DNA from: Girardia tigrina
Lineage: Eukaryota
Assembly: GCA_001938485.1 (NCBI GenBank)
Contig: MQRK01246857.1
Location: 1 to 63,025 of the forward strand
Direction: 5' to 3'
DNA: 63,025 nucleotides
Positions 1-46,376 of this stretch are shown here, piece after piece (position 1 is the first letter of the stretch; each line of letters begins with the position of its first letter). A program made the position numbers and the translations under genes. The notes beneath the pieces were generated by a model. That model saw only the letters and a list, made by a program, of their open reading frames with translations, was not told the origin of the DNA and ran no database searches.

Positions 1-453
1 TAAAAATTTTAAGTATTGAAATAACCTTACTTTGCCCATTCTGAATGTTAATTGATGGGTTGTAGTGTCTTATTAGTAGAGATTCACAAAACTGTCGTTC
101 GTAATGTGAATCAAAATTAGTAATGTGAATCTCTACTAATAAGACACTACAACCCATCAATTAACATTCAGAATGGGCAAAGTAAGGTTATTTCAATACA
201 TAAAATTTTTAATTAAAATACTTTTGCAATTATTACCCAATAATATTTTCATAAATAAAAATGTTTAATTTCTTCTTTACCTTTTAAAGTAAATTATATT
301 TATTAAAATTGTGAAAAATTGTATTATTCAAACAATTCAATAAACAATTGCTGATGATGATGTATATAAACATCGACACATGTCCAATAGTTGTATAAAA
401 AAAGCTTTAATCAAATTATATTTTCGAAATACTAAACTTGCGTTCACAAGACT

Positions 454-456
<3 letters not shown>
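1..456 (+). mobile_element. Penelope-like retroelement 3' end (family A) with inverted partial repeat
   Basis: 124-216 translates CESLLIRHYNPSINIQNGQSKVISIHKIFN*, similar to the GIY-YIG tail at 62585-62670. 1-88 is its reverse complement. Hammerhead motif at 347-388; abuts (AT)n. Confidence 0.75.
347..388 (+). ncRNA. Minimal type I hammerhead ribozyme motif, one core substitution
   Basis: attg-CTGATGA-T-GATGT(atataa)ACATC-GAcA-CATG-TC|caat: perfect stems I and II, palindromic stem III loop, GUC site; GAAA reads GACA. Confidence 0.75.
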
Positions 457-510
<54 letters not shown>

Positions 511-511
511 A
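457..511. repeat. (AT)n(GT)n microsatellite
   Basis: Seen directly. Similar tracts at 15296-15346, 37227-37348, 40343-40384, 44847-45005, 46320-46373, 51746-51942, 54897-55054. Confidence 0.95.
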
Positions 512-1600
512 TACGTGGTTCATCCAATAAGTACGCAAGCTGACAAAGAAAGCGAAATGCAAAAGAGCCACTTTTAGAACACAACAAGCATGAAGGTATC
601 ATTAATGTCGATTGTGCTCATAATTTAAATTTTCCTACACACATCTGCCAAAGAATAATCAACTGAGAAAACGCTTTTTTGAAAAATTCTAGGAAAGATG
701 CGGCGAAGAAATCCTTCATGGAAATCTTTAAATCGTCTTTTGATCCAAACTGTGGCTTCTCAATTGCTTCTTTACGTGTCAGAAGAGGTATAAATCTCTT
801 AGTGTCAAATCTGGGCTGTACAGTGTAGGATCTATAAGCACTATTCCAGCACCTTCAATTGTGGCCCAAGAAATACTTTCTGTATGCATTGGCACCTTGT
901 TGTGAAGAAACCATAAGGGCGTGTTCATATGCTTCCGTCTATTCTTTCTGGCAAATGCCACGATTTAGCTGTAATAGTCCAAATAGATGGGAATGTCTTT
1001 ATCGCGAAATACATGAGAATAACAAAAGTATGATTCCAAAAAATCGAAAGCATCATCACTCGTCAATGACTTGTCCCTGTTCGTATCTTCAAAGACTGCT
1101 TCCACTCTGCCGACTGACGCTTTGTTTCCGGAAAATAGATACTAAGTGGGGTTTGATCCTTCCTAATTAAATTTGACAGGAAAGTCTTACTATGATAGTC
1201 CCACAGGTTTAAGTTATCTTGACTGTACTCCAAGCGGTTTGGCATCATTTTACAAGTCAAGAAGCGGGATACAAATCTGGAGAACAGTTTTCTAATACCA
1301 ATAGATTTCAATTTGATGTGGGCCGTACCAACACTGATGTTGAACTTTGTTGACATCATTTTCGTGGTAATTTGACTCTCTTCTTGGACCATCTTCTCCA
1401 ATTTTTCATCAACTGTGTCAAAAATGTCTTGTGACCGACCGAATTTTGTAGATCAAAGACAAACCACATTTAATCGCCCTGAAAAAATTTTTATCAGTGG
1501 TCAGGGATATTGAGTCGAATAGGTAAGTTGACTGCAGAAGATAGTAGATGTCACTGCACGTATTCTTCTGCAACACAAAAAAGCTTGAAAACGTTGCAAT
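512..1600 (-). mobile_element. Degenerate mariner transposon
   Basis: ORFs 1063-1401 (KLFSRFVSRFLT, cf. WVPR motif) and 779-961 (LHNKVPMH..LYSPDLTLRDLYLF, cf. HDNA..H / YSPDLAP.D). TIR-like end at about 512; other end not found. Confidence 0.75.
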
Positions 1601-3231
1601 GTTCGATGTCTAAAATTCAAAATTTCTCAAAAATTTTTTAATGCGTTTGATAAAATAAAACAATTACTGAAATTAAAACTTATATTAACTAATTTAATCA
1701 CACAAAACAAATAAAATTTTATATTATTTTTTTTTACCTTATCTTGGGTACATATTGAAATATATATTCAACTTTTTAAATCAATAACGTCATCACAATT
1801 TAATAATTCTCATTATTTATTCCCATTTTATTATATTTATTTATATTCTATTGTTTTAAAATAACTTGATATAATATTATATTGACATTATAAAAATAGA
1901 TATGAAATAAATAATAATCTTTTAGAATGACAAAAAAAATCACAGTAAAACTAATAATTTTTTTCTTTAAATTATTTTATAATTATTTATTTTTTTCTTT
2001 TTTCCAATCGTGTCTTACATTGAGTCTGGACAACTAAATTAGATACTCGAGGAGAAACGATAATTGACAGTTCTTGCAGATGCCGAGTAGAAATTCCCCA
2101 AATCATGTGGAGATTCTTGGGTTATTTTGATGTAAACATTAGATATTCGAAGCATGATAAACACTTTCCTGATAATTTTTAATTTTATTTTGTTTAAAAC
2201 AGCTGTCGAGAGTATTAATAGTTTTTCATTTTCTCATAGTAATAAATATAAATAATAATATGAATATTGTGGGTAAAGTAAGCAATCACTTGTGTTGATG
2301 GAGTTGTTGTCTGAAAAGATTAAATGTTTGTAGGATAAATATTTGTTCATAAAAGAAAAAATGGCCTTTTGAAATAATTTTTGGTGGAGACTATTTTTAT
2401 TTTTAAGAAATTTTAATTAACAATAAAATAAACATTTTTTTTCAAGTTTGAATTTTAATTTTCAAATACTTTTAATCCCAAAATTCGACTTTTATTCTAA
2501 TCAAAGAACGTTTGTAAAGGTGAATCAAGTCAGCAGGTAAAGTAAATGGTTTTAACTTTGGAAATGTGTCCAAAAATTTGTACAGTACAAATTTGAAAAA
2601 AATATTTATAGATTTTTTTATTTTTTTTACTTTTTTCTTAATACATCTGTTTATGTTTGCAGTCAAAATAAGTTTATACTATCATAGTGTTAATTATATT
2701 TTAAAATGCATATCTTTAAAAGAATAGGTTTGATAAAAATTTTATGCTGAGCATTAGCAAAACTAACAGATATATCAAGAGAAATGAAAAAATTGAAAAA
2801 TCCATAAACTTTTTCCAAGACTGTAACTTAGGAAATAATAAAAGACATGAAAACAAACTTTAGTACTAAGATAACTTAAAATATATGGTCAGAAAATAAT
2901 ATATTACAGTTACGTAAAAATAAATATAATTATGAGAACAAAATTTTTACCTTTCTGTTAACAAAAAACTACTCCAAAATTCTAATTATCTCTACGGGAT
3001 TCGATTTGCATTATCATTACGATTACCGTCATAATTTTTGTTAGTCCCCGAATATTTTGTCAGAATTAAAATCGTTAATCCACATATCATCATATTTTAA
3101 ACTGAAATATCCCTTGCTCAACAAAGTAGTCCATTAAACTAATTCGCCCGAGATCCGGTTTGAATTGTTGATGTCGTAGATTTTCAACGTTTAAATCCAA
3201 AGTCTGCAGTGTATATATAGGTTACCTACTT

Positions 3232-3747
3232 GTTCCGTCTTGAAACACGGACCAAGGAGTTTTATATGATCGCGAGTCAAAGGGCTTTACAAAACCCCAC
3301 GGCGAAATTAATGTAAAGGTTCATTCCGTGAGCTGTGATGTGACCTTGTCCGGTTTTCCCGGACGAGTGCAACATCAATCCGTCTGAAGGTGTTCGCAAA
3401 TGGGCGGAGTTTGAGCGATCGTATAAAGACCCAACAGATGGTGAACTATGCTTGTGCAGGTTGAAGTCAGAGGAAACTCTGATGGAGGACCGCCGCGGTT
3501 CTGACGTGCATATCGATCGTCGGACATTAGTATAGGGCAAAAGACTAATCAAACCATCTATTAGCTGGTTCTTTCCAAAATTTCCCATAGGATAGCTGGC
3601 GTCGAAATGCTCTCAACTTATTCTCAAACTTTAAATGAGTTCGAAGTGCACCTCTCTTTAATATTTTTGTTGGAGGTGTACATCGAATACAAATGCCTAG
3701 TTGGCCATTTTTGGTAAGCAGAACTGGCGATGTCGGATGAACCAAAC
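3232..3747 (+). pseudogene. 28S (LSU) rRNA fragment, D3 region, with internal deletion
   Basis: Conserved LSU blocks ccgtcttgaaacacggaccaaggag, gatggtgaactatgc, ggttctgacgtgca, ggccatttttggtaagcagaactggcgatg. The segment expected before tattctcaaactttaaat (about 3610) is missing; isolated fragment. Confidence 0.9.
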
Positions 3748-3848
3748 ATATAACGTCAAACTAAAGGCAAAAATGAACAAAAATAAAATAAACATTAACT
3801 AATAAAAAACAAAATTTTAGACATTGATAATACTTAAAATGTTCTTAA

Positions 3849-4070
3849 CCCTTTCCAGGCCATTGTTGCCATATGGCAACATATTTGTAAAATTAAATTA
3901 CAGTTATCTCTTTTACACAATTTAATTTTTACACATAATAATAGTTTCTAAAAAGTCTAATAGATGACACTACATATATTAGAATGCAAAAAAGCGCGAT
4001 TCTCACTTGTTTCTTAGCAATTTAAATCACCATTGTAACGGATATTCAATGCTCCTTGGGCTGGAAAGGG
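3849..4070. mobile_element. piggyBac-type MITE
   Basis: TTAA|ccctttccag ... ctggaaaggg|CTAA; second, left-truncated copy at about 32977-33193 ending aaaggg|TTAA. Confidence 0.8.
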
Positions 4071-4586
4071 CTAAAACTTTAAATATTTTAATATAGTATA
4101 TTAAATTATTCTATTGAAGTCGAATTCAAGCAATCAATCTATAACAATACTTTGAAAATATTTAAGTAAAAACTATTAAATTCTAGTTTATTTATAAAAA
4201 TCATTTATATTTATTTAAATATCGAAATAATTACGGCAAGCTATTTTTAAAAGACGACCAACTCACATCAGAATATGGTGTCACCAATTTGGACGGATTC
4301 CGTTATATTCCTACAAAATCAACTATTATACAATTTAGGAATTACGAACTGTATATCATTTCGGTATATAATTGATGATATAAAAATACTTTCAATAAAT
4401 TTGAAGAAGATGGTGTTCATACATTGATTTTAGGACCATAAAATTTTATCATCAATGCTTTACACTCTCTGACATTCATCAATAAACCATGAAAAAAGAA
4501 TTTAAACAATCATCCTGATCAATCTATTCATAAAATTAAATTGTAAAGCGTAATCCAGATGAAGTATTGGAAAATGAAGATTATTA

Positions 4587-5872
4587 AGGACTGAGTGCGA
4601 AAAATATTACTAACTTTAAATCTTTATAACTCCAACATAAATTCACAAATTACAAAAAACTAATCAAGTAGGCTGTTGTTTGAATAAATCAAAATAAAAT
4701 TTATTTTAGTATTCATTTTTAAATTTCATTTTTATGAATATGTCGTCAGAAACAGGAAGTCACGAATTAATTATTTGTTTATTTCAAGACAATCCAGAAT
4801 CAAGTCAGAAAACAATTGCCAGGAAGACAAAGGTTTGTCACAAAACAGTTTCTAACGTTATTATTAACTTCAATGAGAACTTGAACGTTATTAGAAAACT
4901 TGGTTCAAGAAGAAGAAAGGGTTTTTTGTGTACACAGAAAATGAAAAATGTAAAGGCCCTGTTAGAGAGAAATCCTCGTCTATCAAATCGAAAACTGACG
5001 GTAAAGGCAAATTGTAGCAAGAAAACAGTTCGGAAAATTAAACAGTCTGTAGGTTTAAAAACGTATGAAGTTCAAACATTACCAGACCGGAACGCTAACA
5101 AGAACGCAAAGGCGCAGCAGCGAGCCAGAAAGTTTAAATCTGGTTTTATTGCGAAGAACAAATGTTGCAATATGGATGATGAGACTTATGTGCGCTGCGA
5201 GTTTTCCTGGACAAGAATTTTACTCTACAACGAAGAAAGGAGGAGTTGAAGAAAATTTAGAAGCAAGAAAAAATCTAAGTTTCCCAAAAAATTTCTTGTT
5301 TGGTAGACTATATGTGGATGCGGGAAAATGAGTAAATGCTTTGTCACATCTGGCACAATAAACACAGAAGTCTATGTGAATGAGTGCTTGCAAAAGCGTT
5401 TATTACCATTCATAAGTCAGTATGGAGTTCTTACTTTCTTTTAGCCGGATTTGGCATCGTGCCACTATAGTAAGGCAGCCAAGAAGTGGTACGAAGACAA
5501 TAACATCGATTTGGTGCAAAAGAGAGGCAAACCCACCAAATTGTTCAGATCTTCGCCCAATCGAAAGATATTGGACCCTGGTAAAAAAGGAAATTGAAGA
5601 TCACAAACAAGCGGGCACAGACAATTGCAGATTTTCGGAAGAAGTAAAATAATGCAGCCAAAAACGTGACAGAAACTACATTTACAAGTCTAATGGCAGG
5701 CATTCCGGAAAAGCTCACTGAATTTATTAAAAAAATAAATAATCTTTCTTAGCTTACTAAAATTATCTTGAATTAAACACATTTTTCAAAACAGTCGGTA
5801 ATTTTTCAATCAAAAATATTGTTTTGAAGATAGAGGATTTAAAAGTTAGTAATAATTTTCGCACTTAGTCCT
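4587..5872 (+). mobile_element. Tc1/mariner-superfamily DD37E element, full length, disrupted transposase
   Basis: TA TSDs; TIR aggactgagtgcgaaaa / ttttcgcacttagtcct. Motifs MDDETYV, PDLASCHY, NPPNCSDLRPIE, with 37 residues between the second D and the E after correcting one frameshift. Confidence 0.9.
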
Positions 5873-5999
5873 TAGTTCAGACAGGAAGGTTCAAAACCTT
5901 ATCATATTCAAAATATGTTCTATTTTTATCGAAATACTTTGTATATTTTTATTCAAATGTAGAACCGAATATCTAATTTAAATTCCTATTGTTTGATTC

Positions 6000-7690
6000 A
6001 CCCGTGAGGATGAGGGAAAAGTAGATTCGAAAGTTGTTTTTAAAAGTAAAAGGAAAGAAATATAGACTGAACTCAGTAATGGATCGTTCAAAGTGGATCA
6101 ATCAATCATTTTGTTAAATCGTCGAGCATGATATCGAGTGCTCAATAACATCAACAATCGATCAGAATTTCCGTGAAGCCTGTCGATTAATTCAATCAAT
6201 CTCTCATCTCTGTCAACAAAGTGTCGCTTTCGAAACTAAAAATATTGTTGCACCATAAACGTTAATAAAAATCTGTAAGCTCTTTTAATTGTTGCTACAA
6301 AACCCAAGGAATGTGTCATTAAAATGAAAATTCTAATTACAGTGGGATTCGTTGTCAATCAAACCTAGTTGATCATCGAATAAAATTAACAACTTCCGAG
6401 ACTCAACTGAATTCTGCCGTTAGCGTTAATGTGAATATCGAATCTTCGGAACCTAGAAAATTTATCAAAGACGATATTGAGAGGAACATTGAAAGCAGGA
6501 AGCCATATCAATACAGTCACAGTAAAGAAATCGCTAAAAAAAGAAGTAGCAAAACAGTCAAGTATCAGTCATCCGAAATCAGCATTTTCAGCGTCAACAA
6601 ATTCCCATAGTCGATTATCACTGATTGAATACTAGCGCAAAATCTAACTTAGCTCGATCAAATCTATCCGAAAACATTGATTTTGGTTGGAGGAAAGACG
6701 AAAAAAGATTACCGCGTCTGTTTCCCGTTTTACTGAAACATTCAGTCCAAGCACAAAACAGTATTGATGAGTCGATTGATTGAAGCCTATTTAGTTCCAC
6801 TAACTCAAAAATTTGAATCAAACTGCAGTACGGTAGTCGATATTGAAAACCAATCCGCTCGGAGCGTCACTCCCGTCCCAAGCGTCATTGAACCGATCAG
6901 CAATCTTAACGCAGTCTTCAAATTCCATAGAATGATGAGATTATTGCATTAAATAAAATATCAGTCATAAAAAGAAAAAAATTTTATTATCACTATACAT
7001 ATTCATTTATTTTGAGCTGCCCAATTTTTCATTATATGTGGACTTTATTGGACCGATGAGATCATTGATTGATTACTGTTTGAGTATTCCGTTCGAAGAG
7101 TTTATAAATATTTTTAAACATGTAATTTATAAATAAATTTTCAAAAAAAAATAAATATGAGAAAAAAAATTAAATTATACAATAAAAGACTTATATAATT
7201 CGACAAAAAAGAAGAATATAAAAAATAGATCAATGTCATAAATAAAAATTATAAAAAAAGAAAGAAATCAATAAAATAATGATTAAGCAAAAAATGTTTT
7301 TGTTTGAATTGATCAATTTGTTGTGTAGTTGTAAATACGCGGAAAACAATTTGAAAAATGAATAAAGGATTAATACGTGATTGATTTTGTTCTTTTTTTG
7401 ATTTCAATCACTTTATTGCTTTTGTCAACGAGAAAATTATGAAAACCATTAATTACGTTGTTGTCGATTCGGGTTCGAATATAAAAGGAGCGATCTTAGA
7501 AAATGTTAGAAAACACTCGATCACCGAACCCGGGGTCATCAGAGAGATTTGAAATTTAAAGACACCAGAAAATTCGTTATATACCGCCGCATTTCTTCTC
7601 TATCCATTCGCCGAGTAAGGAGACACGTAGTGTCTGTGTATAGAGACAAATGTGTCCTGAAGAGCGCTTTAAATTAGTTAAAAATCGATT
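6000..7690 (+). mobile_element. Highly degenerate hAT transposase relics
   Basis: DFGWRKDEKRLPRLFPV (about 6680-6730, dimerisation-domain-like), INYVVVDSGSNIKGAI (about 7448-7497, cf. TDNGSN), YTAAFLLYPF (about 7580-7610). Confidence 0.4.
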
Positions 7691-8126
7691 CAATCGATAA
7701 GCCCGAATGCGAATTAAATGAAAACATCAATCGAATCGATTATCGATGACAATGGAAGGATTACAATCCATAATTTCAATGACAGGAAATCGGAGCCGGA
7801 GTTAGAGTCAGTGAGTGCGGACTCGGTGACGACGATCGGTTGTTTACCTACCGATTATGCAATGCAGAACACTTTGCTATAGATGGGAGTAAAGATCTTG
7901 TCCATGGATTAAGAGCCGCGCATATTTGTCCCATACTGCCGGTCCAGCTTCAAACAGTTCCATCGCACCGATATCATCTTCTGTCCGCATTGTGGTAGCT
8001 CAAATTTCGGCAAGGTACCCGCACAGATCAAACAGGGCGGACAAATCAAGGTCTTTCTCAAGAAAAATTTCCAACCGAATTTGCGAAACAACTTTCTCGA
8101 TTCCCACTCCAAAAGATGGAAAGCAT
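7690..8126 (+). pseudogene. NOB1: NOB1 (18S rRNA endonuclease) C-terminal fragment
   Basis: IGCLPTDYAMQNTLL*MGVKILSMD (cf. VGCLTTDFAMQNVLLQMGL), zinc ribbon CRSSFK..IIFCPHCGS, and FSIPTPKDGKH (cf. YSLPTPKGGK). TAG at 7880-7882, plus a deletion and a frameshift. Confidence 0.85.
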
Positions 8127-8129
8127 CGC

Positions 8130-8364
8130 GACGAAAAAGAACAACAATGCATTTTCCGAGTGATTTCGTCTATGATGTTGATGGAAAATGTGGAGTTAAA
8201 GTAAGATCGCAATTCAGATCAGGCCACTCTTCCTGATAACTCTGTTGCTAAAAAATTTGCTCATTTGCTTGGACTACAAGTCATTGAAACGACAAAAGCG
8301 TTTTTAAAGCCGAGAAATGGTGTTGAAAGTTCAAACAAAAGAGCAATCTGAGGTTTCAATTGAA
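8130..8364 (+). pseudogene. Non-muscle myosin II heavy chain (MYH9/10/zipper-like) motor-domain fragment
   Basis: EQQCIFRVISSMMLMENVELK*DRNSDQATLPDNSVAKKFAHLLGLQVIETTKAFLKPR..KVQTKEQSEVSIE (cf. [40 protein letters not shown]). Confidence 0.85.
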
Positions 8365-9029
8365 AAAATCATTGTGTTTTTGTTTTATTTCTCCCCCTCG
8401 TCCCAGGGTCTACACATCCCCAGCTCCAGGGATCAGCAGCCACACTGTGCTCACACTCTTGCAATCAACACCTATGACTATTTTTTAACTTAATAGACGA
8501 ATTAAGTTTATCAAAATCAAACATCAAAAATTAACGATCAAAAAGTGGAGATTGAACGTCAAATTAAAGCAATTCATAATGAACAGTTGAAGAAAACCGT
8601 TAAAAATTTCGAAAATTAGCTTCATATTATTAATGGTACAGATGACAGTCATTTTGAAACTCATTTATATTGAATAAATCATATTTTTAATTAATTTTCT
8701 AATTAGAGATATAATACAATCTTTTATCTCTAACCAATTACAGATTTAGAATCAGAATAAGAAATTTCACAACTGAGTCCCCTGTGATGATCAATTTACA
8801 AAATATGTAATTTGACCTTCATTGGCGAAATCTGCGTACTCGATTTGACAAACAGAAATTGGAAAAAACAAACATCAAAACATTTTGACATCATAATCTT
8901 TGCAAATTTTAGAAACAATCAAAACTTAACATATTGTTTTTTTGTATTTTAGTTTATTATTTTATTATTTGACACGTTTATTTAAAACAACTATGTTCTA
9001 CAGAAATTAAAAAAATAATTATAACCTTA

Positions 9030-9700
9030 TAAAAGGGCTGACCTATTACACTTTTGAAGAGGTCGATTGCTGATGCTCATGTGATAGTCACTAATGTAAG
9101 AAAACGGCCTGGATGTTGGAATGTCAAGATATGAAAGAAAAGGAAATATTTCCTTAGAAAAGCACAGGTCTAACAAAACTTCAGAGTCGTCTCAGGGACC
9201 GTCAGACTTAAAATCAAATGGTTAGATGGGATCCATTCTAAAAACCATTCAAAGATTAACAAACACACATAGAACTTAATTTACACAAAGAATGTTTCTC
9301 GGAAGCTACACTGTCAAGCTGCAATTAGAAAACCTCTGCTTGCAAAGACAAATGTTTTGAAGCGTTTAGAATTGTATTCAAACCGCCACAATTGATCATT
9401 CAAGCAGTTGAAAAATTTAATTTTCTGTAATTTTCGACAAAAGTATTTGATCTAGAATACTTTATTCTAACCGTAAAATTTGTGATGATCTAGGGTGCAA
9501 TTTCTTGGAAATTTGCTGGTTCAATGATTTTCTTTTATAGAAAAATTAACAGGTGAGACTTTTTAGATAATTCGGGTGACCCAATTCATCCTTTGGTTCA
9601 AGAACTATTTCCAGGATGGAACACCATCTTACAAGATGATAATTAACAAATCCATACAACAAAAATTGTTAAAGAATGACATGAGTAAGATTCTTATGTA
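9030..9700 (+). mobile_element. Degenerate Tc1 transposase relic
   Basis: AAIRKPLLAKTNVLKRL, VMI*GAISW, ILQDDN*QIHTTKIVKE. Confidence 0.65.
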
Positions 9701-9916
9701 CTTTATATGATTTCTGCTTTTTAAAAAAATTAAAAAATATACCGTTTAAGATTGACATTTTTCTAAATAAGATTTTTTATAAATTATTTTTTCAAATAAA
9801 ACTAAAATAAATATAAACTGTACAAAATTTTCATTATTACGAATTTTAAATCCGTCATAGATATACGATTAAGAAAACAAAATTATCTTTCAAAGCTTTG
9901 CTAGCTTAAAATTGGT

Positions 9917-10164
9917 GCTAGGAAAAAAACATCGCAGGACAAAATGTCACAGGATAAAACGTCACTAGGGCGGAACATCACATGGAAAAAACATCACAAA
10001 TAACTAAATAAATTTAAATAAATCATATAACTCTCACTAGAACGATAACCCCTAATGTTAACTCTAACCTAAGTTTTTTTTATTTATTTAGTTATTTATG
10101 ACCTTTTTGTCCTGTGACGTTTTATCCTGACGTTTTGTCATGTGATGTTTTGTCCTGTCACCCT
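9917..10164. mobile_element. Small foldback/MITE with 15-bp subterminal repeats and taaccc-like core
   Basis: Repeats caggacaaaatgtca/caggataaaacgtca on the left mirrored by tgacgttttatcctg/tgatgttttgtcctg on the right; aaataactaaataaa and tttatttagttattt are inverted. Confidence 0.7.
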
Positions 10165-11153
10165 TCATATTTAAACCATTGGTATAAAAGTGACCATGTG
10201 ACCATGGAGACATTTTGAAGTCAAATAAGACATGATTTTTCAATGTGCTACGGTTCATAAATTTTCTTGATGATTTTCATATTCTTACAAGTTGTTTTTT
10301 CAATTGAAAACATCTAAGACGTAAAGGACAAATTGTTAAAGCCTTAAAAATGTTTAAAAAATAACTGGATAGTTTTTTTGTCAACGCTTCAGTTGGTCAT
10401 TTGATCTTTCTTTCCAATTTTAATCTGCATTTTAAAGAATTTCCATCAATATAGCTTTCTTTTAACATAAAATAAATAAAATTCTAGACTCAAAGACGTA
10501 ACCTTATTGAGTTAGTTCTATTTACAAGTAAAACATGTAATAAAACATTAATTGGAAAATATTTTAACATCCTTTTTTATTAAAATTTTTCAGTCAAAAT
10601 TTTAAAAAAAAAAATTTTTTAAACATTATTTATTTTTTTAAATATTATTTATTTAAATAAATAATTTGATTAAATTTGCTTTATAAAATCTGAATAGATC
10701 AAAACACTAATAAAATAATATTACAATTTTCGTATCATCAAATAAAAATTTTAATTTCACACTTTTTTGATAATATTTTTAGTATCAAATTATAAATTTG
10801 TATTGAAAAATAAATAATTTAATAAAAATATTTTGATTAAATGAATTAATTCATCATCCAACAATGCCCTGAAATACAAAATAAATATTTTAATCATAAT
10901 ACTAATAAATAAGGTATAACCTTGTAACATATTAAGATAAAGATTGAAAAGTCAAATGGAATAGAAATAAGATTTTGAGAGTAATAAATATAGGGTAAAG
11001 GGATTCATAAACAACAATAGGATAGATTTAAAAGATGCTTCATGGAAAGATATATAAACATGGGAAATTACTACTTAAAATGATAAGTAGAATAATTAGA
11101 CAATAATTTACAAATTTTTTTTTACAAAAATTAAAAATTAAAGCCATTTTTAC

Positions 11154-11346
11154 CTCCAGGCCTTACTATGATAGGAAAGGGATCACTAACTGGTCCAGGA
11201 CCAGCTTTATTAACGGCATTGACCTTGATATGATATGTTTGACTGGTCATGAGGTCTTTTATGTTAACGTAGGTACGAGATGTTTCTGATTTTTGCCATT
11301 GATTTATTGGCTGAATCGCTATCCGTGTATAGTAAACATTGTAACC
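11154..11346 (-). CDS. Lar: Exon of LAR-like RPTP gene; C-half of second FN3 domain
   Basis: Acceptor ttttacag|, donor |gtaaaa; 193 nt, phase 0-1. Encodes GYNVYYTRIAIQPINQWQKSETSRTYVNIKDLMTSQTYHIKVNAVNKAGPGPVSDPFPIIVRPG, which completes the domain begun at 41582 (cf. LAR GYRVYYT...W...L....TY..KV.A....G.GP.S). Not in the ORF track. Confidence 0.85.
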
Positions 11347-17528: not shown

Positions 17529-20500
17529 TGTTGTGAAAGAGAATATCTAATTAAGAAAAATATATTTGACTTTACAATAATGATTATTAAAACAACACAC
17601 ACATTAAAATACATTAATATTTACATAATTATTCCACACTCGCCCTGTTCGACAACTTAATTTCTGTATCTTTTAGGCTTCTGTCGGTCTCGAACTGGAT
17701 TGCGTCTCACTCTTGTTTCATTAATATTCCAAAGATCTTCCTCTGGCATCTGGTCTTCTTCATGTACATCATGATGATCATTTTTGATACTTTTTGACAT
17801 AATTGTTGTAGCCTTTTCTGATTTTCTCGTGTCATTTTGTGGTGTTCTCAATCTTTTGATATCCACTACATTTCTCTCAATTATTCTTCTATCACTAATC
17901 ATTTTTAATCTGTACGCATACTTCCCAGTTTACCGATCACCGCATATGGTCCTTCGTATCTCGGCATATCTATTCCTTTGATTCGCGGTAATATCCTAGC
18001 CAGCACTAGATCACCAATTGCCAGACAACCCCCTGAACCTAATGTAGCTGGCTTTTTGATTTCTTGTTTGGTCTTGATCTGTTGGCTCACCACTTGTAAT
18101 ACTTGTTGAAGCTCTGTGATATATTTGCAATAGTTTCCATCATTTGTTGGATTCACTTTCTTTTCCGAGTAGAAAGACCACATTTTCCGACCAAAAATCA
18201 CCTCGAAGGGAGAGAATCCAGTGCTTCTACAAATTGTATTTCTTAGTCCAAATTCAACAATCGCCTCTTCCCATTCACATCCAGATGACTTCGCTGTTGC
18301 GTAAAGCATGTCTTTTACTGTACAAAATAGTGTCTAAATTACCCCGTCACTTTGAGGATAATATGGTGAGCTCCGAGATTTTCTAATTCCAAGAAGAGCA
18401 CAAAGTTCCTGTACGATCTCGCTCTCAAAAGCAGTCCCTCTATCTGAGTGTATCCTGTCCAGGATTCCAAATTGCACGATCCACTTGTCAAATATGGATT
18501 TTCATATCGTTTTCTCAGTCATATTTCTCAGCGGTATCGACTTATGGTATTTTGAAAAGTTATCAATAATTCCCAAGATGTATCTACCTCCATTTTTACT
18601 TTCCAAACCTCAAAAACTCCCAATGTCCTTTTCTAGTAATAAACTCTATTTTCTCTCTATCACACTCTGCAAGACTTATGTTATAATATCCTGCAGCCAA
18701 ATCAATTGAACTAAGGTGTTTCGCTCCTCCCAAGGTATCAAAAAGTTGTTGTGCGTCAGGATTTGGAAATGATGGAACATTAGTCTTTTGATTTAGTCTC
18801 CGGTAATCTACTGTAAGTCGAATATCTTCGTCCTTTTTTGGCACAATCACTATAGGAGCGTTCCACTCTGATAGACTTGGTTTAATAATATTTTTCTGTA
18901 GCAACTGTTCAACAAACTCATCCACTTTTTCTTGGTGCGCCACAGGAATTCTCCTTGTTTGCTCCTGTATCGGGCCATTATCTTTAAGCTCTATTTTATG
19001 CTCAGCGTTCCGCGCCAAGCCTATATCATATTTAGACCAACTAAATAAGTCTCTGAATTCTTTCACTAAACTAATAATATTGTTTCTATTGCTATCATTC
19101 ACACATCTAAATTGGGATAAGAGACACTCACTTTCAGGCGCTTCTGTTACAGTCTGAGTCTCATAGGGCACATACTGCTTCCGACTCCTCAAACAGTGCC
19201 CTTTCAGTTTAACTAATTTGTCGGGACTGTCGTATCTGCATTCACCTTCGAAAGGAATGGAACGAAAATTGTTCAACTATTAACGCCATTATTATCGAGA
19301 TCAATCTTAATCCCAAGACTCTTCATGCTCCGTATCCAAAGAATTATATCCGGGCTCAATCCATCCACAACAAAGAAATTACAACTTCTCCCTTTAGCAC
19401 CCAATTCAACTATCAGGGATTCTTCCGCTCGTACAGGCACTGTAAATCCATCTGCACACTTGATTTTTCTGGATGAACGTCTGGTTTTCAATGTTTTATC
19501 TGAATCTTGCAACTCCATTAGCATGTCTTTGCTGATAGCATTCACTTCGGCTCCGGTGTCTAATAAGATATTTTTACTCTTCCCATTGATCCGACCGTAA
19601 CACATTGGTTTGTTCTGATCTTTTACTTTATAACTGCTCTTCTTTACTCGAAGATTATTCTGTTCCTTTTGTTTCGGAACTGTTTCTTTCACCACTCTGG
19701 CATACAACTTCTTTTCATTTGAAATATGACAAATGCTCGGTTCTTCCGTACCTGTTCCCGTGTCTGTTTCACTTTCATTACTGGATATACTGGCAGACTC
19801 GACCACATGGACTGATTTACGTTTTCCGTTTAGACAAAACTTATCTATATGTCCCTTTTTGTTGCATGTTTTGCAGAATCGAGACTTTTTACAGTCTCTC
19901 AAAATGTGACTGCTGCTCCCACAATTCCAGCATCCACTTGTTTCTTTGACAGGATTTCTCGTTCTATTATCGCCTTTCCATTGACTTGATTGTCTTTTTT
20001 GCTTCAGCCCTTTTACCGTTTCCTGTAATGAGGTAATACGTTTGTTCAGTTCTGAAACTTCATCCCTAAGCATTCGAATTTCATCATTCTCGGCCAGCAC
20101 ATTTACTGTTGCCGACATATCCTGAGTTACACATTCTTTTTTTTATCATCTCGAATGCTTCATCCAAAGTTTTAGGCTGCAATACTTTTAGTGCCTCTTG
20201 AGCTCTGTCATTCATTAAACCATTTATAAAAACTTGGAGAGTTTTTGGCTCTCTTTCTTCGGAGGTCAACTCCGGTAATTCTTTAAAACAACGAATTCTT
20301 ACTTCTTTCATAAACTCCTTCGTTGACTGACCATCCTTCTGTCGAATTCCAAATAGTTTCATCCACGATGAAATGTCTGACTTCTTTCGTCCGAACAACT
20401 TCAAAAAGGTTTCCTTGAGCCATTCGAAACTCTTTTGGTTTTGGGTGTAACCACTCTGCGACTTCAGAAAACATTGAACATCTTCCTCCAAGTATTCCAT

Positions 20501-20820
20501 GAAGAAGTCAGTTTGTGTTTCATCCGATATTTCAAGTTGCCGCATAAATGCATCCATACATTTCAAAAATTGGGCAGCATCGTCCCCTTCTTCGAATGTT
20601 TTCGGAGTTTTGGCGGAGTCCTTTTTCAGGATTCTATTCAAAATTACTTCCAGTAATTTCGACTGGTGATCTCCACTATCGGCTTTGATCCTGCTCATGA
20701 CGCCACTGTTGTGAAAGAGAATATCTAACTAAGAAAAATATATTTGACTTAGAATTTACAATAATGATTATTAAAACAACATACATTAAAATACATTAAT
20801 ATTTACATAATTATTCCATA
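17529..20820 (-). mobile_element. Ty3/gypsy LTR retrotransposon, both LTRs present, internally deleted pol
   Basis: LTRs 17529-17638 and 20707-20820; 5-bp TSD ATAGT; PBS tggcgtcatgagcaggat. Gag with two CCHC knuckles, protease LLDTGA, RT N-part (WNAPIVIV, VDYRRLN, IDLAAGY) joined directly to integrase core (IDNFSKY, HSDRG, PYYPQSDG). Confidence 0.95.
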
Positions 20821-21239
20821 ATAGTTTTAGTTTTTAATAAAAAAATATTTATATTTTAGAATTTTCTGAGGTTTCATTGACATGATTTTTCAAAATCAAG
20901 TTACCCTACGTTATGTGAATATTATTGATAATCATCTACCTTTTTAAAAGACTTAATATATTATTAGAGAATGTAAAACATAATAAGATATATTGAGCAT
21001 TATTATAAGACATTATTAAACCCCATTGTACAGACCAAAACAATAAATTATATTAATATTTAGAAATATAAGTACACATTAAAATCATATATTTTTATCT
21101 AAAACAAAAAAAAAATCAGGTTGCGGTCTCAACACACAGTTTTCAAAAAAAATAAATTTAGAAATCAATGGTGACATTTGAAAACTATTGCTGTATAGAA
21201 TGAAAAAAGTTTATTCTGATTTATCACAGAATGATGGCC

Positions 21240-21480
21240 TAAAGTAGGGCATTTCGGTTACGAAAAGTAACAACACGTCCTCTTAGTTGTATTCAAATGC
21301 GCGGATGTTGTTCCAATGCCGTTGAAGAAGAACTGCCAGAGTTCTTTTTGGAAAAGCTAGATGCTGTGCCGGATTGTTCATTGTCAATTTTAGGAGCCCC
21401 CTACCCAAACGAGATTGAATAATTCCCTGTCTTCCCACGACCAAGAGAGTTTCAACAACCAACGGGGTGTCGCTACAGCG
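21240..21480 (-). mobile_element. CRE/R2-like non-LTR retrotransposon 3' relic (restriction-like endonuclease tail)
   Basis: PLVVETL...SRLGRGL...LAFPKRTLAVLLQRHWN resembles the PLAVETLG.WG...LG......FL.QRLSVALQRGN tail of REL-endonuclease elements. Confidence 0.55.
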
Positions 21481-22059
21481 CACCGTTGATTTACTGTCAA
21501 CATTGATATATATATATATAATATTCATTATATATACATATATATATCATTTAACCTCTTCGCACCGAAAGTAAATCTTTTTTGGCATGGAATTAGCAAA
21601 CACAGTGATAGCAAAAATTAAACTTAGTCGCCTTCGACGATTTACGGTCATAACCGGTTCTTCAACCGGATATTGCTGTAAATCAAGCCACAATTCAAAG
21701 GAGACCAATCTTTTTAAAGACGAAGAACTTTATAGCTGATAAGAATGAAAGAGAATTGAACAACGTCAACAACCGAGACTATCTATATCATCGCGAGAAC
21801 CTGCATTAATCTCCCACATGAGATCTTCAAAGTCATTATCTCGTCCCCAGTGGCTAATCTGATTTTCACTCTAGAGACCGTTATAGAGTCTCCTTATACT
21901 TATTATATGTTGTTAAGCCCCTACGTCCGAACCTCACCTGGAACCAGTATGATAGCATTAGTGATACTGCACTTAATTTTAAATTTACCTTACTTTGAGA
22001 AGTAATGAATCAAACGATTTTAAAACATAACTAGTTTCTGATACTTATGCTCTTAAGAT

Positions 22060-23250
22060 CACACAACCGAATTTGTTCACCTATCATACTGGATCACCGA
22101 AGGTCTGATTTTAGCTCATGGACTTGAAGTTCAAGAGCATGGGGATTAAGGTGCTTATTTCAATATCTTCTCGGAACCATTCCGGCAGATCAGTCACAAT
22201 CCATAGAATCTCTTCTTGCTGAGATTGTGCAACATTCGAAGCCATACATTCAACTACGGAAACCAGTTATGATGGTTCACGAACCGACATTGGATGTCGT
22301 CTTTGAAAACTATTTCAAGATGCAGTAAATCGGTCTCACAAAGCCATCACAGAGTCTTTAGCGGGTCATAACTGACTTGAAAACGACCTAACCCGGGATC
22401 ACGCAGGATTAAAACAACTCAATTTTGAAGAAATTCTTCACACAATGCACAAAGCGATTCTCACAGTTACTATCTCAACGGACATGAGGGAACCTTTTGA
22501 TTTTGCAGACCAGATCGCTGAAACTGTTCCATTCATTACAAACCATTGTTTTCAGGTTACCTAGACCTCAATGGACAATACTGAATAGCCACCACCTCAA
22601 CAAGGCACACAGAGTACTGCTCTCACGGCTCAAAAGGATCAAATGGCTGCCGTTATTTCCGCCCTAACGTCCAGCATTGCGTCTCTAATAACCAAACTGC
22701 ATGCTCGGCAACGCAGCAAGGGTCATTTATCACCAAAGGTTTTGTCAAAACGGCAACGAATGGAAGGGGAACCGCACCGCACTACAGATTGCATATTTTT
22801 GCATTTTCCATTTCAAGTATAGTTAGAATGCTAGATCGTGCTCTCCAGGCAGCAAATTTCAGTCCACAAAAATAGTTTCACCGTCTATCAAAGCAGCAGA
22901 TAGAAGAAGTGAGGACAGTTGCAGTGGATTATTCACTTCATCTGCACATATCTCGAATTCGCCAATTACAGTTGCATCGTTCTTAGTAGACACCGGATCC
23001 ACGATATCAGTCCTGTCTTGCAGTTTTCAGAAGCAAAACTATCTTAATTCCAGACCACTCATAGCCTAAAATGGATACGCTGTCTACACAAACAGGACAA
23101 TTCAACTGTCGTTCTTATTGATACAACTGGACATGAAGTTTCAATAGAAATTTAGAGTAGCACACGTCATTCAGCCCATTCTAGGTGCAGATTTTTTAGA
23201 CAATTTAGACATCCTCCTTGACTACCGAAATTTAAGATTTCTTCACAATG
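22060..23250 (+). mobile_element. Degenerate gypsy gag-protease relic
   Basis: TGSPKV*F, CIFHFKYS*NARSC (cf. CWYH.KFG..AR.C), FLVDTGSTISVL, PILGADFL. Confidence 0.75.
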
Positions 23251-23906
23251 AAGTTACATCGGATTATTCAGCCAAGAGTAGGAATTTTAGTGTCATCCAT
23301 ACTATTCATGCACCGCAGTAAAATTTTATTGAGAAAATCAAGAACAGGTTTCCAAATGTTCTTGTCTGATCTACCCAGGCTGATCAACCTAGTATGTATT
23401 TTTGCAAGTTATCGTTACTCACAGCTGTGTTCTAGTTCAATAGCGCTGAAGAATATTGTCACAAGACAGACGACTATTAACCGTAGCTCAGTCTTTTCCC
23501 CGTAGGCGAATTATAGTCACTTATAGATTGCCGCCACCAAACTTTAATCCATCATTATGCTTCGCATCTTTCTTTGAAGGCTGATATAGTGACAAAAAAA
23601 TTAAATCATATTAATATATATAAATGATATACAATATCGTCTGGGGGCTACAGAAGCTGAGACAGTAAACGAAAAAATGTAAAAACGTCTGCAATAAGAG
23701 GCAACTGAAAAACATTGAGGCTAAATAATACGCATGAATACAATTGCATTGAGTAGTATAGATTCGTTACCAGAAGAAAACAAAAAAATCCTAAATACCA
23801 TTAACCTATTCAAATAAGCAATTTTAAACTTAAAAAAAAATCATATTCTATCAAATTTCAAATATATAGTCATAATTATAGTCAAATATATATAGTCATA
23901 TCCCAA

Positions 23907-27960: not shown

Positions 27961-30909
27961 GTGATTCGTTCAAAAGAATTGATTTAATCAATAATAAAAA
28001 ATTAATAAATAAAAAAAATAATTAAAAAGAATGATAAAGAAAAACGTTATTAGCAATATTATAAGTATTTTCTGATTCACTACTTATATACCTTTTCTTC
28101 GCCATTTACCTGTTCCCAGATCAACTATTATTGATAATGATCTGAACAACATTATCAAAAATTGTATGAATACTATTCTCTAAAAGAAAAAGAAAAGACA
28201 AAAAAAAATCCATACTTAAATTTCTCAATCGCGACAATACATATTTTGATCGCCAGTTTCCATATCACAACAAACAATTCCCAGCCCAAAATTGACTTTC
28301 GAAGTATTAAATAATTTATTTTACATTTGAACTCTCTATATTGTTGGCTTTTTCACTCCCTCAGTATTCTTCTTTTTATATTGCTCTTATTTTTATCTGA
28401 CCTTTATTAAAAAATGTTATCGGTTATAATTGTTTCACTTGAACTAATTATTTATTTTTATATTTAATATTTATTGTGAATGTAGTCTCAATGATAAGTC
28501 ATTTGCCATCTAGGTTACTTTTTATTTATTTATTTACTTTTATAATAAATAAAATGGTTCAGTATCAATTACTCATTAAACTACAAATGGTCAAAAATAT
28601 AGATAAATTATGAAGTGCAGAAACTCCGCAAAGAAGATAGGAAGATAATTATTAAAATAACGGATCAATAAAAAAATTGATGTAATGAAAACGAAAATAA
28701 TCAAAGAATACAAATTTTAATTGATTTTTAATTTTTATTGTTCGTATGAATCATGATTTAAATAAAAAATTGTAATTGAAAATTTTTTATTGGTTTTTGC
28801 TTATTTTGTTTTGATTATTTGTAATGTGTTCTTACAATTTAGTCTAAGTGAAAAGCCTAATGATGTAAATATAAAAGTTGTTAAATGTAAAAAATAATTT
28901 TATTACAAGAAGGCCCTCTTCAAAAGGTTTGCGACCCTAGTTCAACTTTAACAAACAAATTTCTTTTATAGAAAAAGGAAGAATAACTAAGACTGTTCAA
29001 AAGCAAACACCACTATATATATTCGTGTTTGTTCCCTCTCCCAACAAATCACAGCAAAAACAACCTCCATTCAATCCAGACCAACCAACGCAACAAAGTA
29101 AAAATGAAAATTATTCAAAAAAATTTCATTCAAAAAATAACGAAATTTTAAAAATCAATTTTGAAAAAAATAACTTAATTTAATTAATGAATATTTTTAA
29201 TGAACTACTTTTTTAATAAAGAAAAAAAAAGTTAATTTGGTGTGTTACAAAGAAATTTATTTTTCAAGCGTTTTTTTCCTGATATTTACAAAAATTCTAT
29301 TTTATTAATGTTCGTAGCGTTTAAACCACTTTCACTATTAACAGATTCAATGCTCATAACTCAACACCAAAATTTTTATACTTAGCACAACAAGAGATTT
29401 TCAAACAAATTTTCCTTTCACTCTATAAATTTTATTCTACTTTAAATTTGTAAAAAAACATTTTAAATTTAAAAATAATTTATTAAATTCTGTAGCATAT
29501 TTTTGAATTTTTATTACTTCAAACTTTTATTATTTTTAAAATGCGTTTATAAAATTATATGACAAATAAAATTAATTTTTCCATTTACATAAACATCTAA
29601 TTTTAAAATTAATTTGTAAAAACTATTAAATTTCTTAAAAATACTTTTTTAGTAGCTTGATATTATAAATTTACGCATTAACCTTTATTTATTTTATTAA
29701 TTCTTTTAAAGTTCTTATTTTAAAAATTTTTACTGAAAATATCAACTTTTAGATTTTTTAGATTTTAAACTCTGTTTTTGTCTTACATAATTATTTACTT
29801 GTTGCAAAATTTTTAAATTAAAAAAAATTAAATTATTTAGTGAATCGAAAATTTTAGCTAAATCTTTATAATTAATTAAATCTATCGAATTCCGAATGAT
29901 GAAGAATATTAATATGTGGAATCTGCATTTCGATTAAAGAACGTCCCTCAGATTTGGTCATTTAGAATTTTTCATGCAGTTACCATCCGCACGTGACTTA
30001 TTAAAAATTACGGGACCCCGAAGAATTATTCGATCTTTCGCCATATCCGGAGTGAAACGATTCCCAGTCGTGAATGAAGCTGGTGAACAGAACCAGTTCA
30101 AAAGATCGTCGAGTGTGATTCGATTCACGATCAAGATGGTTGCTATTCGTCCAATGAACTAAAAGTGGAATGCTCTCGGATTGACTCGGCACTCAAAGGA
30201 ACTGTATTTCCAAACTCGGGAAATACTACTCGGGGCAATACAAGTTGAGTTTAACACATCAACCAAGCTTTCATGATTTCTAGATCGGCTCTACTCGGAA
30301 GTAATGATAATGATAGTTTCACAATTATAGTGACAACAAGCCGTTATATGAATTTGAAATAAGATAAAATGAAAAGTTAGATTTTACTTAGAGAAAGATT
30401 TATATTTAAAAAGTTAAATTTTATTATAAAATTTTATTTTTTAATTTTCGGTTTGTTTTAGGTGAAAGAAAAATGATAACGAGAGATTGAATTAATAAAG
30501 AGATTATTAAATCGATTTCGTTTTTAATTGATATTTCGTGTTGAATACAAAACATAAACATGATCCCTGATTACTGGATTGCTAGATCATTGGATAAGAA
30601 AAATTACAGATGTAAACTCTTAAAAAGCCATAAAAGAATTCAATAACAAATATGAAATAAAAATTGTTGGGGTTCCTTTTGGTGAACTTTAAATTTTTGA
30701 TATTTTTTAAAAATCATATTTGTATTTTAAGTAAATTAAAAATATTGTTTGATTAATTAAAATGAAATAATTCTTTAAAATAAAAACCTTTTAAAGTCTT
30801 AAAAAAAAGAACGAGCTCATTCTTTAAATTTTTGGAAATAATTAATTGTTATAAATAATCTCTAAAATAAAAAAAGTATTTAAAATCAAAAGTTTTAAAC
30901 AGTTATTAG

Positions 30910-32097: not shown

Positions 32098-32739
32098 GTT
32101 ATTAGTAAAAAATATCTTAATTAATTTTAAAAATTAATTTCATAAATATTTGAATTTTAATTGTTTTGCATTTATTTTAAGAGTTATTCAGAAGAATTTT
32201 TTGTTAAAATTTTTGTTGTCAGAGATGTAATAAAAAAAAGATAATTTAAAGTTAAAAGGCAGTTGGAAATTCTGCAAATTAAAATTCGATAAATAATAGA
32301 TAAAATATAGATATATGTTGTATCTCAGCAGAGGCTTTTTTGTTTTTGAGATCAGGGAACTCATCCCTTATAACATCATTAATGAGTGGATTCATACCAG
32401 CGTTCAGTTTGGCTTCCTGATCGATCAGATCTTCCGAAGTACTCGAATTCAATTCTCGGTGTTTCATCAATTTCTTTTGTTTAGCATAGTCGAGGATACA
32501 GAGGACCGAAGTGCAGTTGTCGTAATTTGGGAATTGAAAAAACTTCGAAATATCTTTTTCGTTTAGTTTCTTCTCGGAACATCGATCTGATTTGTTCAGT
32601 TTTACTTTCATTGTCGGGTGGGAATTTTTATTTGATTGATTGATACCCATTTTACGGGCAATATTGTCGAGGTTCTCGGTGACATCGGGATCATTTGAAT
32701 TGTAATTCGAATCGTTAGACACATCATTGTTGTTGAACA

Positions 32740-33825
32740 GCCAGTCAGTAAATTTACACTCTAATCTCATTAAAAATTATTGATTCTGTCACGTTTTTCC
32801 TTATGGTTTAATGAAGAAATAAAAGATGGATTTTTGTATACTTGATTAATCTTCGGATCCAATAAATAACTAGTTTGATATTTCAATATTGCAGTAAATA
32901 GGTTCCATATACTGAACTCCGGTCAATAAGAATCAAAGAATTTCACACATGAATTCTCAGTTTGCCATCTGGAGTTAGCCCATTTTTGCCATATATCAAC
33001 ATATTTGAAAAATTAAATTACAGTTATCTCTTTTAACCTATTTAAATTTTACACATAGTAATAGTTTCTAAAAAGTCTATTAGATGACACTACATATATT
33101 AGAATGCAAAAAAGCGTGATTCTCACTTGTTTCTAGAAACAAAACAACAATAAAAAATTTTTTTTCAAAAATAATAATTTGGACTAGAAAGGGTTAAATG
33201 ATAAATTGGTCGCTTTACTAATATGAATTCGATGGTCCTAAAATGAACCAATATCAATAACATTTTAAAATAATTTATCATCTTTTTTAATCATAAAAAG
33301 TCGCATAATATAAAGAAAGTTATCCAAAAATGTATCACAGAATTAGAAGTAAATATAAAACTTCCTTTTTTGCCAGATGTTCTTATCATTAAATCAACTT
33401 TATTCGAATTTCTCATATACATACAATGATTTATTACATCGTGACTCGTGTAGGTCATACAGATATTTAAATAGAATATTTTATGCGTCAGTGTTATTTT
33501 AATAATATTCTTTGCGATGTCCTGAATGTCAGCTGGAAGTAAACTCAAATTACCGATAATCCTCACGCAAACATCGTATTTTTTTCAGAAGATGTATTTC
33601 GTCTATTAATCTTTGAATTTTTTCTCTAACCATATTCATTAAATATGTAACTTCGTCAATATCTCTTTTGAAATTATTTATCAAAAACGCGAAAACAAAC
33701 TAACTTAATACCAAATTTTATTTCTTTTATATTGATGTCGAGACACCATTTCAAAATTTCAGCCAATTTTTTAAAACCAAATTTATGGCCGTCCATAATA
33801 ATTGTCACGTGATTCGGATTTGTGT
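32740..33825 (-). pseudogene. DHDDS: DHDDS (cis-prenyltransferase) pseudogene, interrupted
   Basis: PNHVTIIMDG, GFKKLAEILKWCL, FAFLINNFKR..EV..LM, VCVRIIGNLSLLP, YLNICMTYTS, DLMIRTSG, LCDFL, WQT..S....FDSY*PEFSIWNLFTAILKYQ and RINNF/MRLECKFTDWL are colinear with DHDDS. Carries stops, frameshifts, deletions and a MITE insertion. Confidence 0.9.
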
Positions 33826-34009
33826 TCACAATTTGATAATTATAGGGAGAGGGTGATGTGTGAAGCATTGTTGATCAAATCTTTTGATCCTAAAATCAAT
33901 GTCCAAACACCATCCTCTTCAACTTTATTGAAAGTATTTTCATGATTTAAATGACATAATGATTATATAAACATTGCTTTGATATGTAAACGCGAGTATA
34001 TCATTGTTA

Positions 34010-34057
34010 ATTCAGTCTGATGATGACGGTCGATCCGTCGAAATTAATCAGAATAAA
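34010..34057 (+). ncRNA. Minimal type I hammerhead ribozyme motif, intact core (Penelope family B remnant)
   Basis: attcagt-CTGATGA-T-GACGG(tcgat)CCGTC-GAAA-TTAA-TC|agaat, overlapping an AATAAA. Predicted cut after 34049; stem I has a 2-nt bulge. Confidence 0.8.
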
Positions 34058-41290: not shown

Positions 41291-41481
41291 AAGAATACAG
41301 CAATAGAATATTACGAGCAGCAGTTCTGTGAATTCTTTTTATGTAATTTATATTAAGATTACCATAGTAGTTACATAAAATTTAATTATATCAAATATCA
41401 TTTTTACAGAATAAAAGCATAGTGTTCTTCTTTTAAATTATATAAATAATATTTCTTAAAAAATAAATCTTGAAATTTTAC

Positions 41482-41582
41482 AGTGATAAATCCATTTGGC
41501 TCAAGAGGAGGGGCCCATTTGACTGTTATTGACGTGGTCGTATCTGCATAGGCAAAGACTAGTTGAGGTGGCGAACTTGGAG
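41482..41582 (-). CDS. Lar: Exon of LAR-like RPTP gene; N-half of second FN3 domain
   Basis: Follows a 104-nt GT-AG intron (41583-41686); 101 nt, phase 1-0. Encodes PPSSPPQLVFAYADTTTSITVKWAPPLEPNGFIT (cf. LAR APSSAP..VQW..P.EPNG.I); donor gtaaaa. Not in the ORF track. Confidence 0.85.
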
Positions 41583-41686
41583 CTAAATAACAGAAAAATA
41601 ATCATGAATAATTTTATTCCAATAAAAGTAAATTATTTCATTTCTTTTTATAACATTTAAAAAATGAAAAATCAAAATATACTTAC

Positions 41687-46320: not shown

Positions 46321-46325
46321 CACAC

Positions 46326-46376
<51 letters not shown>

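Follow-up and report, generated by a model that had tools for sequence, protein, structure and literature searches.

Positions 7439 to 8370 of the plus strand of the window, by which we mean the whole 63-kb stretch of DNA analysed here, hold a decayed copy of NOB1 coding sequence that runs directly into an internal piece of a myosin II motor domain. We regard it as very nearly certain that these duplicated pieces of genes form a genuine composite without function. The parts of the locus are as follows.

7295..7305, plus strand: left copy of an 11-base direct repeat, T-rich, candidate target-site duplication
7306..7438, plus strand: presumed NOB1 5' leader, so named from its position only; 133 bases from the repeat to the ATG, 75% A+T
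7439..7570, plus strand: start codon of NOB1, followed by the initial half of its PIN nuclease domain, with a stop at codon 38 (profile positions 23-69, E 3e-5)
7571..7723, plus strand: eroded NOB1 middle, frameshifted and lacking the rest of PIN and most of the acidic linker through deletion (from frameshift-aware alignments)
7724..8089, plus strand: NOB1 conserved core and zinc ribbon, decayed (profile E 1.3e-31), with two stops and a 4-codon deletion
8090..8132, plus strand: last NOB1 piece, FSIPTPKDGKHRD, preceded by a 2-base deletion
8133..8370, plus strand: stretch from within the motor domain of a non-muscle/smooth-type myosin II, corresponding roughly to residues 345-425 of vertebrate myosin-11 (PDB E 3e-13)
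8375..8385, plus strand: right copy of the 11-base direct repeat, 4 bases past the end of the myosin likeness

The identity of the left half as NOB1, proposed in the initial annotation, was borne out by matches in PDB (E 7.7e-16) and to the Pfam family Zn_ribbon_NOB1 (E 3.9e-11), and the closest NOB1 protein, here called P0124, scored 122 bits against 74.5 for the next among 552 hits. A NOB1 profile of our own, built from 165 homologues and run against the whole window, matched only 7430-7570 (E 3e-5) and 7724-8089 (E 1.3e-31). The composite had been placed at 7690..8364, and NOB1 is indeed present there, but a start at 7690 truncates it, its ATG lying 250 bases earlier at 7439; at the other end the myosin likeness reaches slightly further, to about 8370 after a frameshift. 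The PIN half matched Pfam PIN_6 at E 0.029, which is below the cut-off of that family, and was found by tblastn with three NOB1 homologues at E 7e-4 to 4e-3. In the eroded middle 51 codons stand against 131 profile positions (between 69 and 201), so that about 80 codons are gone. In the core 57 of 85 residues are identical to P0124; one ligand cysteine of the zinc ribbon has become serine, and the 4 deleted codons come from the conserved motif preceding the ribbon. The alignment with P0124 stops exactly at HRD, and its remaining 71 C-terminal residues were not found downstream (score 29, against 25-38 for shuffled sequences).

A NOB1 tree of 28 rows (a selection from named hits and top unnamed hits) grouped the relic with P0124 (support 98/66, not starred), and the pair fell in no named group of that tree. 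When the relic was the query, none of 405 candidates with lengths of 386-2000 residues proved to be the parental NOB1; when P0124 was the query, no named protein exceeded 41% identity (78 hits, 275 candidates). A search of bacterial and archaeal genomes for the parental genes returned 101 pattern matches, none of which was confirmed.

The right half had been assigned to the myosin II motor, and this assignment was upheld, since all 20 PDB matches were smooth or non-muscle myosin II (best E 3e-13) and Pfam Myosin_head was matched as well. It is an animal-type myosin II whose motor-domain sequence is closest to MYH9/10/11/14 and zipper; 299 of 303 candidates matched the piece at E 0.001 or better, the best single matches being 62-73% identical. 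The piece joined to NOB1 is 79 codons long and carries one stop, and at about 8316 a 6-codon deletion and a frameshift interrupt the likeness, which then resumes to about 8370. The window holds no further myosin match.

At the junction, FSIPTPKDGKH-RD-EKEQQCIFRVISS forms a single open reading on the plus strand with no spacer, intron or poly(A), as had been reported. The join itself had been put at about 8127; it lies instead at 8132/8133, because P0124 reads ...GGKHRDG and none of 119 myosin homologues carries D at the junction residue (S in 73, T in 26, N in 15), and it shifts to after 8133 if one G is shared. Judged from the proteins, microsimilarity at this point amounts to at most a few bases, one G being possible. 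The description of the join as 'in frame' is true locally and means little overall: the zinc ribbon is in another frame until 8089, the 2-base deletion lies 40 bases upstream of the junction and the myosin frameshift about 185 bases downstream, and an in-frame join is expected by chance one time in three. Comparison within the window revealed no repeat at the junction, nor did the 63 kb contain a second copy of the unit.

Both halves have decayed to about the same extent. There are ten stops in all: the NOB1 frame has nine, beginning at codon 38, and the myosin frame one. Invariant residues are changed at 3 of 12 positions in NOB1 and 8 of 37 in myosin (Fisher p 1.0, in a test of low power). 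In the 28-row tree the branch of the relic measures 1.19 against 0.16 for its sister P0124. The initial annotation was right to see in the locus two unrelated housekeeping genes, joined and decayed. A functional fusion gene was considered and rejected, given the ten stops, several frameshifts, loss of invariant residues and lack of an open reading frame from the ATG to the junction; to judge by its sequence, nothing is translated from the relic and no protein is made. The state of decay also bears on whether two separate pseudogene loci were merged in assembly. This is a draft assembly with 10 gaps in the window; the nearest gap to the unit, however, is at 14422, with none closer than 6 kb, and the junction lies in no repeat. 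Both halves are moreover copies decayed to a similar degree rather than live genes, and the bracketing repeat would be left unexplained, so that we find an assembly chimera scarcely credible.

The setting of the unit was examined across the window, which has 29% G+C and a CpG observed/expected ratio of 1.0, and which is filled with Tc1/mariner, piggyBac-type, gypsy and Penelope-like relics as judged by Pfam and in-window comparison. The features that bear on the argument are these.

3220-3760 and 60726-60936, plus strand: two fragments of 28S rRNA
4238-4465, minus strand: Penelope-like copy related to the end at 33818-34101 (86% identical to it over 86 bases)
4585-5874: Tc1-type transposon upstream of the unit, both inverted ends present (Pfam, in-window comparison)
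5990..6952, plus strand: decayed coding-like stretch, probably outside the unit, whose best frame has 4 stops while each other frame has 9-17
7131..7295, plus strand: most A-rich stretch of the window (64% A)
8400..8660, plus strand: probable C-terminal remnant of a Tc1/mariner-type transposase, a lead only (among Atlas clusters to which a family is assigned, DDE_3 comes nearest, with a score of 0.88 and 15% of members)
11153-11345 and about 41407-42062, minus strand: exons of a gene for an fn3-repeat cell-surface protein (contactin/receptor-phosphatase-like matches)
33290-33817, minus strand: DHDDS (cis-prenyltransferase) copy, decayed and uninterrupted, with frameshifts and internal deletions (Pfam E 5e-11; PDB E 4e-12)
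33818-34101, plus strand: Penelope-like 3' end with GIY-YIG tail and UTR, abutting the DHDDS relic back to back (33817/33818)

The introns of the fn3-domain gene are very long and transposon-filled, and its exons lie 30 kb apart. Since the exon at 11153-11345 ends in a GT donor and positions 1-11300 contain no further fn3 match, the relic probably sits antisense inside a long intron of this gene. The window also holds a gypsy-type element on the minus strand (17529-20818; gag, protease and RT pieces, terminal repeats 91% identical), adjoined by a second decayed gag-protease stretch on the plus strand (21151-23650). Nested and inverted mariner copies at 45059-51354 are 97% identical over 707 bases, pointing to recent activity. 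A weak match to Pfam PDDEXK_9 at 28941-29180 on the plus strand (E 0.005, under the cut-off) may be due to chance. At 1-211 two Penelope-like ends meet head to head as an inverted pair (97% complementary over 93 bases), and the Penelope end at 33818-34101 carries a CTGATGA...GAAA motif with a GACGG/CCGTC stem that we take to be hammerhead-like, a motif for which Rfam gave no hammerhead match. A short element with CCC...GGG ends, presumably a piggyBac-type MITE, occurs in two copies (3830-4075 and 32977-33190; 92% over 158 bases), each with a Penelope end and a relic of a gene or of rRNA close by. Two stop-free stretches lie on the minus strand: one of 168 codons at 56099-56602, with importin-7 as its only PDB match (E 0.038) and no clear splice sites, is possibly a decayed copy; the other, of 165 codons at 32282-32776, follows the DHDDS relic on the same strand at a distance of about 500 bases and has a weak Atlas lead to SWIB/MDM2 clusters (0.77) and no Pfam or NCBIfam match.

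At the flanks of the unit, the 11-base repeat occurs in exactly two copies in the 63 kb, and these bracket the 133-base leader, the NOB1 part and the myosin part. The repeat was spotted post hoc; its probability under chance is 3.6% when wide zones are searched (9 of 247 random pairs) and, again post hoc, 0.9% when the right copy must fall within 20 bases (41 of 4388). The myosin piece is followed by no 3' poly(A), the best stretch having 53% A, a value equalled by 7% of windows. Positions 5875-9500 gave no match to the gypsy elements of the window, and there was no gag or pol Pfam match in the flanks. The unit is likewise not framed by Penelope pLTRs: the nearest Penelope-like end (4238-4465) is 2.8 kb upstream, and none was found downstream. 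The coding-like stretch at 5990..6952 was equalled in openness by 37 of 2000 shuffles and matched nothing in Pfam, NCBIfam or PDB. The A-rich tract at 7131..7295 is possibly its old poly(A) tail, and the two together may be a separate tailed retrocopy or a neighbour gene of NOB1. As a pure poly(A) of the age of the relic the tract was rejected, its 64% A being below what the decay of the coding part would leave.

Such an arrangement could in principle stem from capture by a DNA transposon, of Pack-TIR/Pack-MULE or Helitron type, and the neighbourhood offers some encouragement. Tc1/mariner and piggyBac-type relics are abundant in the window, and the probable Tc1/mariner transposase remnant at 8400..8660 follows directly after the unit on the same strand; this is a lead that depends on what we take to be a motif likeness, with no Pfam or NCBIfam match and no support from the other DDE relics of the window. 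An 11-base duplication would, moreover, fit a MULE. The termini, however, speak against capture. The best inverted matches between the flanks scored 10-11, which is the level of the null medians (10-11), no left arm of a TIR element was found beside the unit, and a terminus would not fit into the 4 bases that separate the end of the myosin likeness from the right repeat. As to a Helitron end, the best hairpin before a downstream CTRR reached a weak -1.7 kcal/mol against a 5th percentile of -3.9 at 591 background sites, and the sole strong hairpin, on the minus strand at 5877, lies where the Tc1 element ends. The initial annotation had also placed hAT-like relics just upstream; a six-frame search of 5801-7600 at E 0.05 matched no hAT family, PIN_6 being the only match there, and the upstream element is the Tc1-type transposon at 4585-5874. 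The motif VVVDSGSNIK of the NOB1 PIN domain resembles the hAT catalytic motif and is, we presume, the look-alike behind that claim. With no TIRs above chance, no CTRR and hairpin end and no hAT relic, the suggested Helitron or Pack-type capture is without support, and we hold DNA-transposon capture to be very improbable.

The initial annotation had leaned heavily on the seamlessness of the join, more heavily than the locus allows. The relic itself contains other seamless deletions (about 80 NOB1 codons, 4 codons before the zinc ribbon and 6 myosin codons), and the DHDDS relic has a seamless join as well, at which about 26 residues were lost. Since such deletions are common in both relics, seamlessness alone is no pointer to capture, and the NOB1-myosin join need not be primary, as a deletion could have made it. 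One explanation of this kind starts from a compact locus with the upstream gene, NOB1 and myosin II arranged head to tail. It would have been duplicated at the DNA level, and a deletion exceeding 1.2 kb would then have taken out the NOB1 end, the spacer and some 340 codons from the start of myosin. The upstream coding-like stretch, the 480-base A+T-rich spacer and the NOB1 start do resemble a head-to-tail gene pair, and a second same-strand pair about 500 bases apart is seen in the DHDDS relic and the open reading frame at 32282-32776. The NOB1 copy has already lost roughly a quarter to a third by deletions, and equal decay of the halves is predicted here too. Nevertheless, the required deletion is several times the largest in the relic (~240 bases), the direct repeat is left unexplained, and the sole clear host gene in the window has introns, with exons 30 kb apart, and gives no evidence of gene-dense intronless islands; we therefore consider this course of events unlikely.

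A deletion could also have welded two independent insertions, a myosin piece having landed within or next to a NOB1 retrocopy that was already there, or vice versa. Host-gene debris is dense in the 63 kb (at least NOB1, myosin, DHDDS, two rRNA pieces and the weak importin-7-like stretch) and seamless deletions are frequent, both of which speak for it. Against it, the displaced 3' remainder of NOB1 was not found downstream, the window has no other myosin match, and neither the equal decay nor the bracketing repeat is predicted, which makes two insertions a rather doubtful proposition. The alike decay of the halves and the bracketing 11-base repeat support one insertion instead.

As to the nature of the templates, each half is coding sequence in sense orientation, the join falls at an internal position of both, and no intron-sized insert interrupts either. 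The myosin relic reads past KEQ-V without an insert, where 8 of 115 homologues diverge directly, and the NOB1 relic reads past RG-T/S-K/I-V without an insert, where 6 of the 15 C-terminally cut homologues (of 223) stop. We read these break-offs, which fall at GT-type codons, as introns in unspliced gene calls; they concern other taxa and not the host's own genes. The relic thus appears to cross sites where other eukaryotes have introns, which supports RNA templates in the sense of 'intronless' and not yet of 'intron loss'. The same window lends further support to an RNA route through its 28S rRNA pieces, the uninterrupted DHDDS copy, the gypsy RT and the Penelope-like ends. The 3' flank of the first 28S fragment is 65% A, which ranks among the top 0.2% of windows and is what a tailed retro-insert would show; strongly A-rich 3' flanks were found at two of six relics tested.

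Taken together, the best explanation is in our view a dead chimeric retropseudogene formed by template switching of a reverse transcriptase and inserted once, to which we assign a probability of about one half. Among the three routes offered in the initial annotation, retroelement template switching is thus the one retained. The reverse transcriptase of a retroelement, acting on cellular RNA, would have copied an internal stretch of non-muscle myosin II mRNA from 3' to 5', jumped to NOB1 mRNA immediately past the KHRD codons and copied on into the 5' leader. The product, today 7306-8374, would have been inserted once, probably in the long antisense intron of the fn3 gene, leaving the short direct repeat, and would since have decayed neutrally by substitutions and many deletions. 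The enzyme may have been of LINE, Penelope or gypsy type; the relic itself encodes nothing now. A link to Penelope is seamless for the DHDDS relic and loose for the NOB1-myosin unit and serves as a lead only, a plain Penelope insertion in an older pseudogene also explaining the DHDDS juxtaposition. Several points stand against the retropseudogene reading. No poly(A) and no LTR or Penelope flank was found, though every described route leaves element sequence or a tail, and two intact repeat copies sit oddly beside about 15% decay (an estimate from the 57/85 identities). The repeat is also T-rich and was spotted post hoc, the comparison of decay has low power, and the join may be secondary, seamless deletions being so frequent here.

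The lack of tail and element sequence would be accounted for, together with the internal-to-internal join, if a polymerase had copied two ectopic templates (DNA or cDNA) in turn during repair of a double-strand break, and end-joining repair can yield short flanking duplications. The unit, however, measured about 1.4 kb before erosion and begins neatly upstream of the ATG, and random templates in a mostly non-coding genome would rarely give two sense coding halves that cross intron-type sites. A templated insertion of this kind strikes us as quite improbable.

A single locus of this kind is of little weight, for the process that left this functionless relic is already known from flies, fish, mammals, plants and a fungus; it would gain weight as a marker. 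The load of housekeeping-gene debris in the window is nonetheless unusual for an invertebrate-type genome. A much bolder and improbable extension is that in this genome a non-LTR enzyme, a reverse transcriptase of Penelope or LINE type, accepts ordinary mRNAs and rRNA almost as readily as its own RNA and switches between internal mRNA positions, leaving element-free multi-gene concatemers. If this were true, the run of upstream gene, A-rich tract, NOB1 and myosin, the A-tailed 28S piece and the DHDDS/Penelope join would all belong to one genome-wide, element-free exon shuffling. Many element-free two-mRNA chimeras across the genome would make a promiscuous reverse transcriptase a source of exon shuffling, and in that case the numerous seamless deletions would directly measure deletion-driven decay.

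We found no earlier report of a NOB1-myosin heavy chain chimeric pseudogene in the open library searched, and nothing on template jumping in the accessible part of PMC11167929. Two-gene retrocopies made by template switching are known in animals, an example in the sections available of Tan et al. (2016, PMC5131818) being Drosophila CG4799_CG11924_r. Like the NOB1-myosin unit, the LTR-mediated chimeric retrocopies described there are partial copies of two unrelated mRNAs, cut internally, on one strand and without poly(A); unlike it, they lie in LTR-retrotransposon sequence and have measurable microsimilarity, whereas no LTR-element flank was found at our unit. Direct transcript fusions with flanking repeats are known in a fungus (Gogvadze et al., 2007, PMC2104539, in excerpt). 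Such LINE template-switch chimeras, as presented in parts of that paper and of a review (PMC5470649), share with the unit the direct fusion of different transcripts and a short direct repeat at the flanks, but they include a retroelement or SINE part and, in LINE products, a 3' poly(A), while in the unit both parts are protein-coding mRNA and the 3' part is internal and tailless. Host genes mobilised by Penelope elements in Adineta vaga, in the portions available of Arkhipova et al. (2013, PMC3846280), compare in that Penelope-like ends occur in our window and duplications of 8-10 bases are described; they differ in being framed by pLTRs and in keeping introns, the NOB1-myosin unit having a pLTR at neither end. 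Animal Pack-TIRs, according to the available text of Tan et al. (2021, PMC8277862), likewise show host-gene filler adjoining TIR-transposon sequence, but the unit lacks matching arms of one element. The unit is neither a Pack-TIR nor a pLTR-framed Penelope product. It resembles both classes of chimeric retrocopy and yet fails one defining feature of each, the LTR flanks of the one and the poly(A) with an element-derived part of the other, and we file it as a chimeric pseudogene, probably retro-derived, and assign it to no element class.
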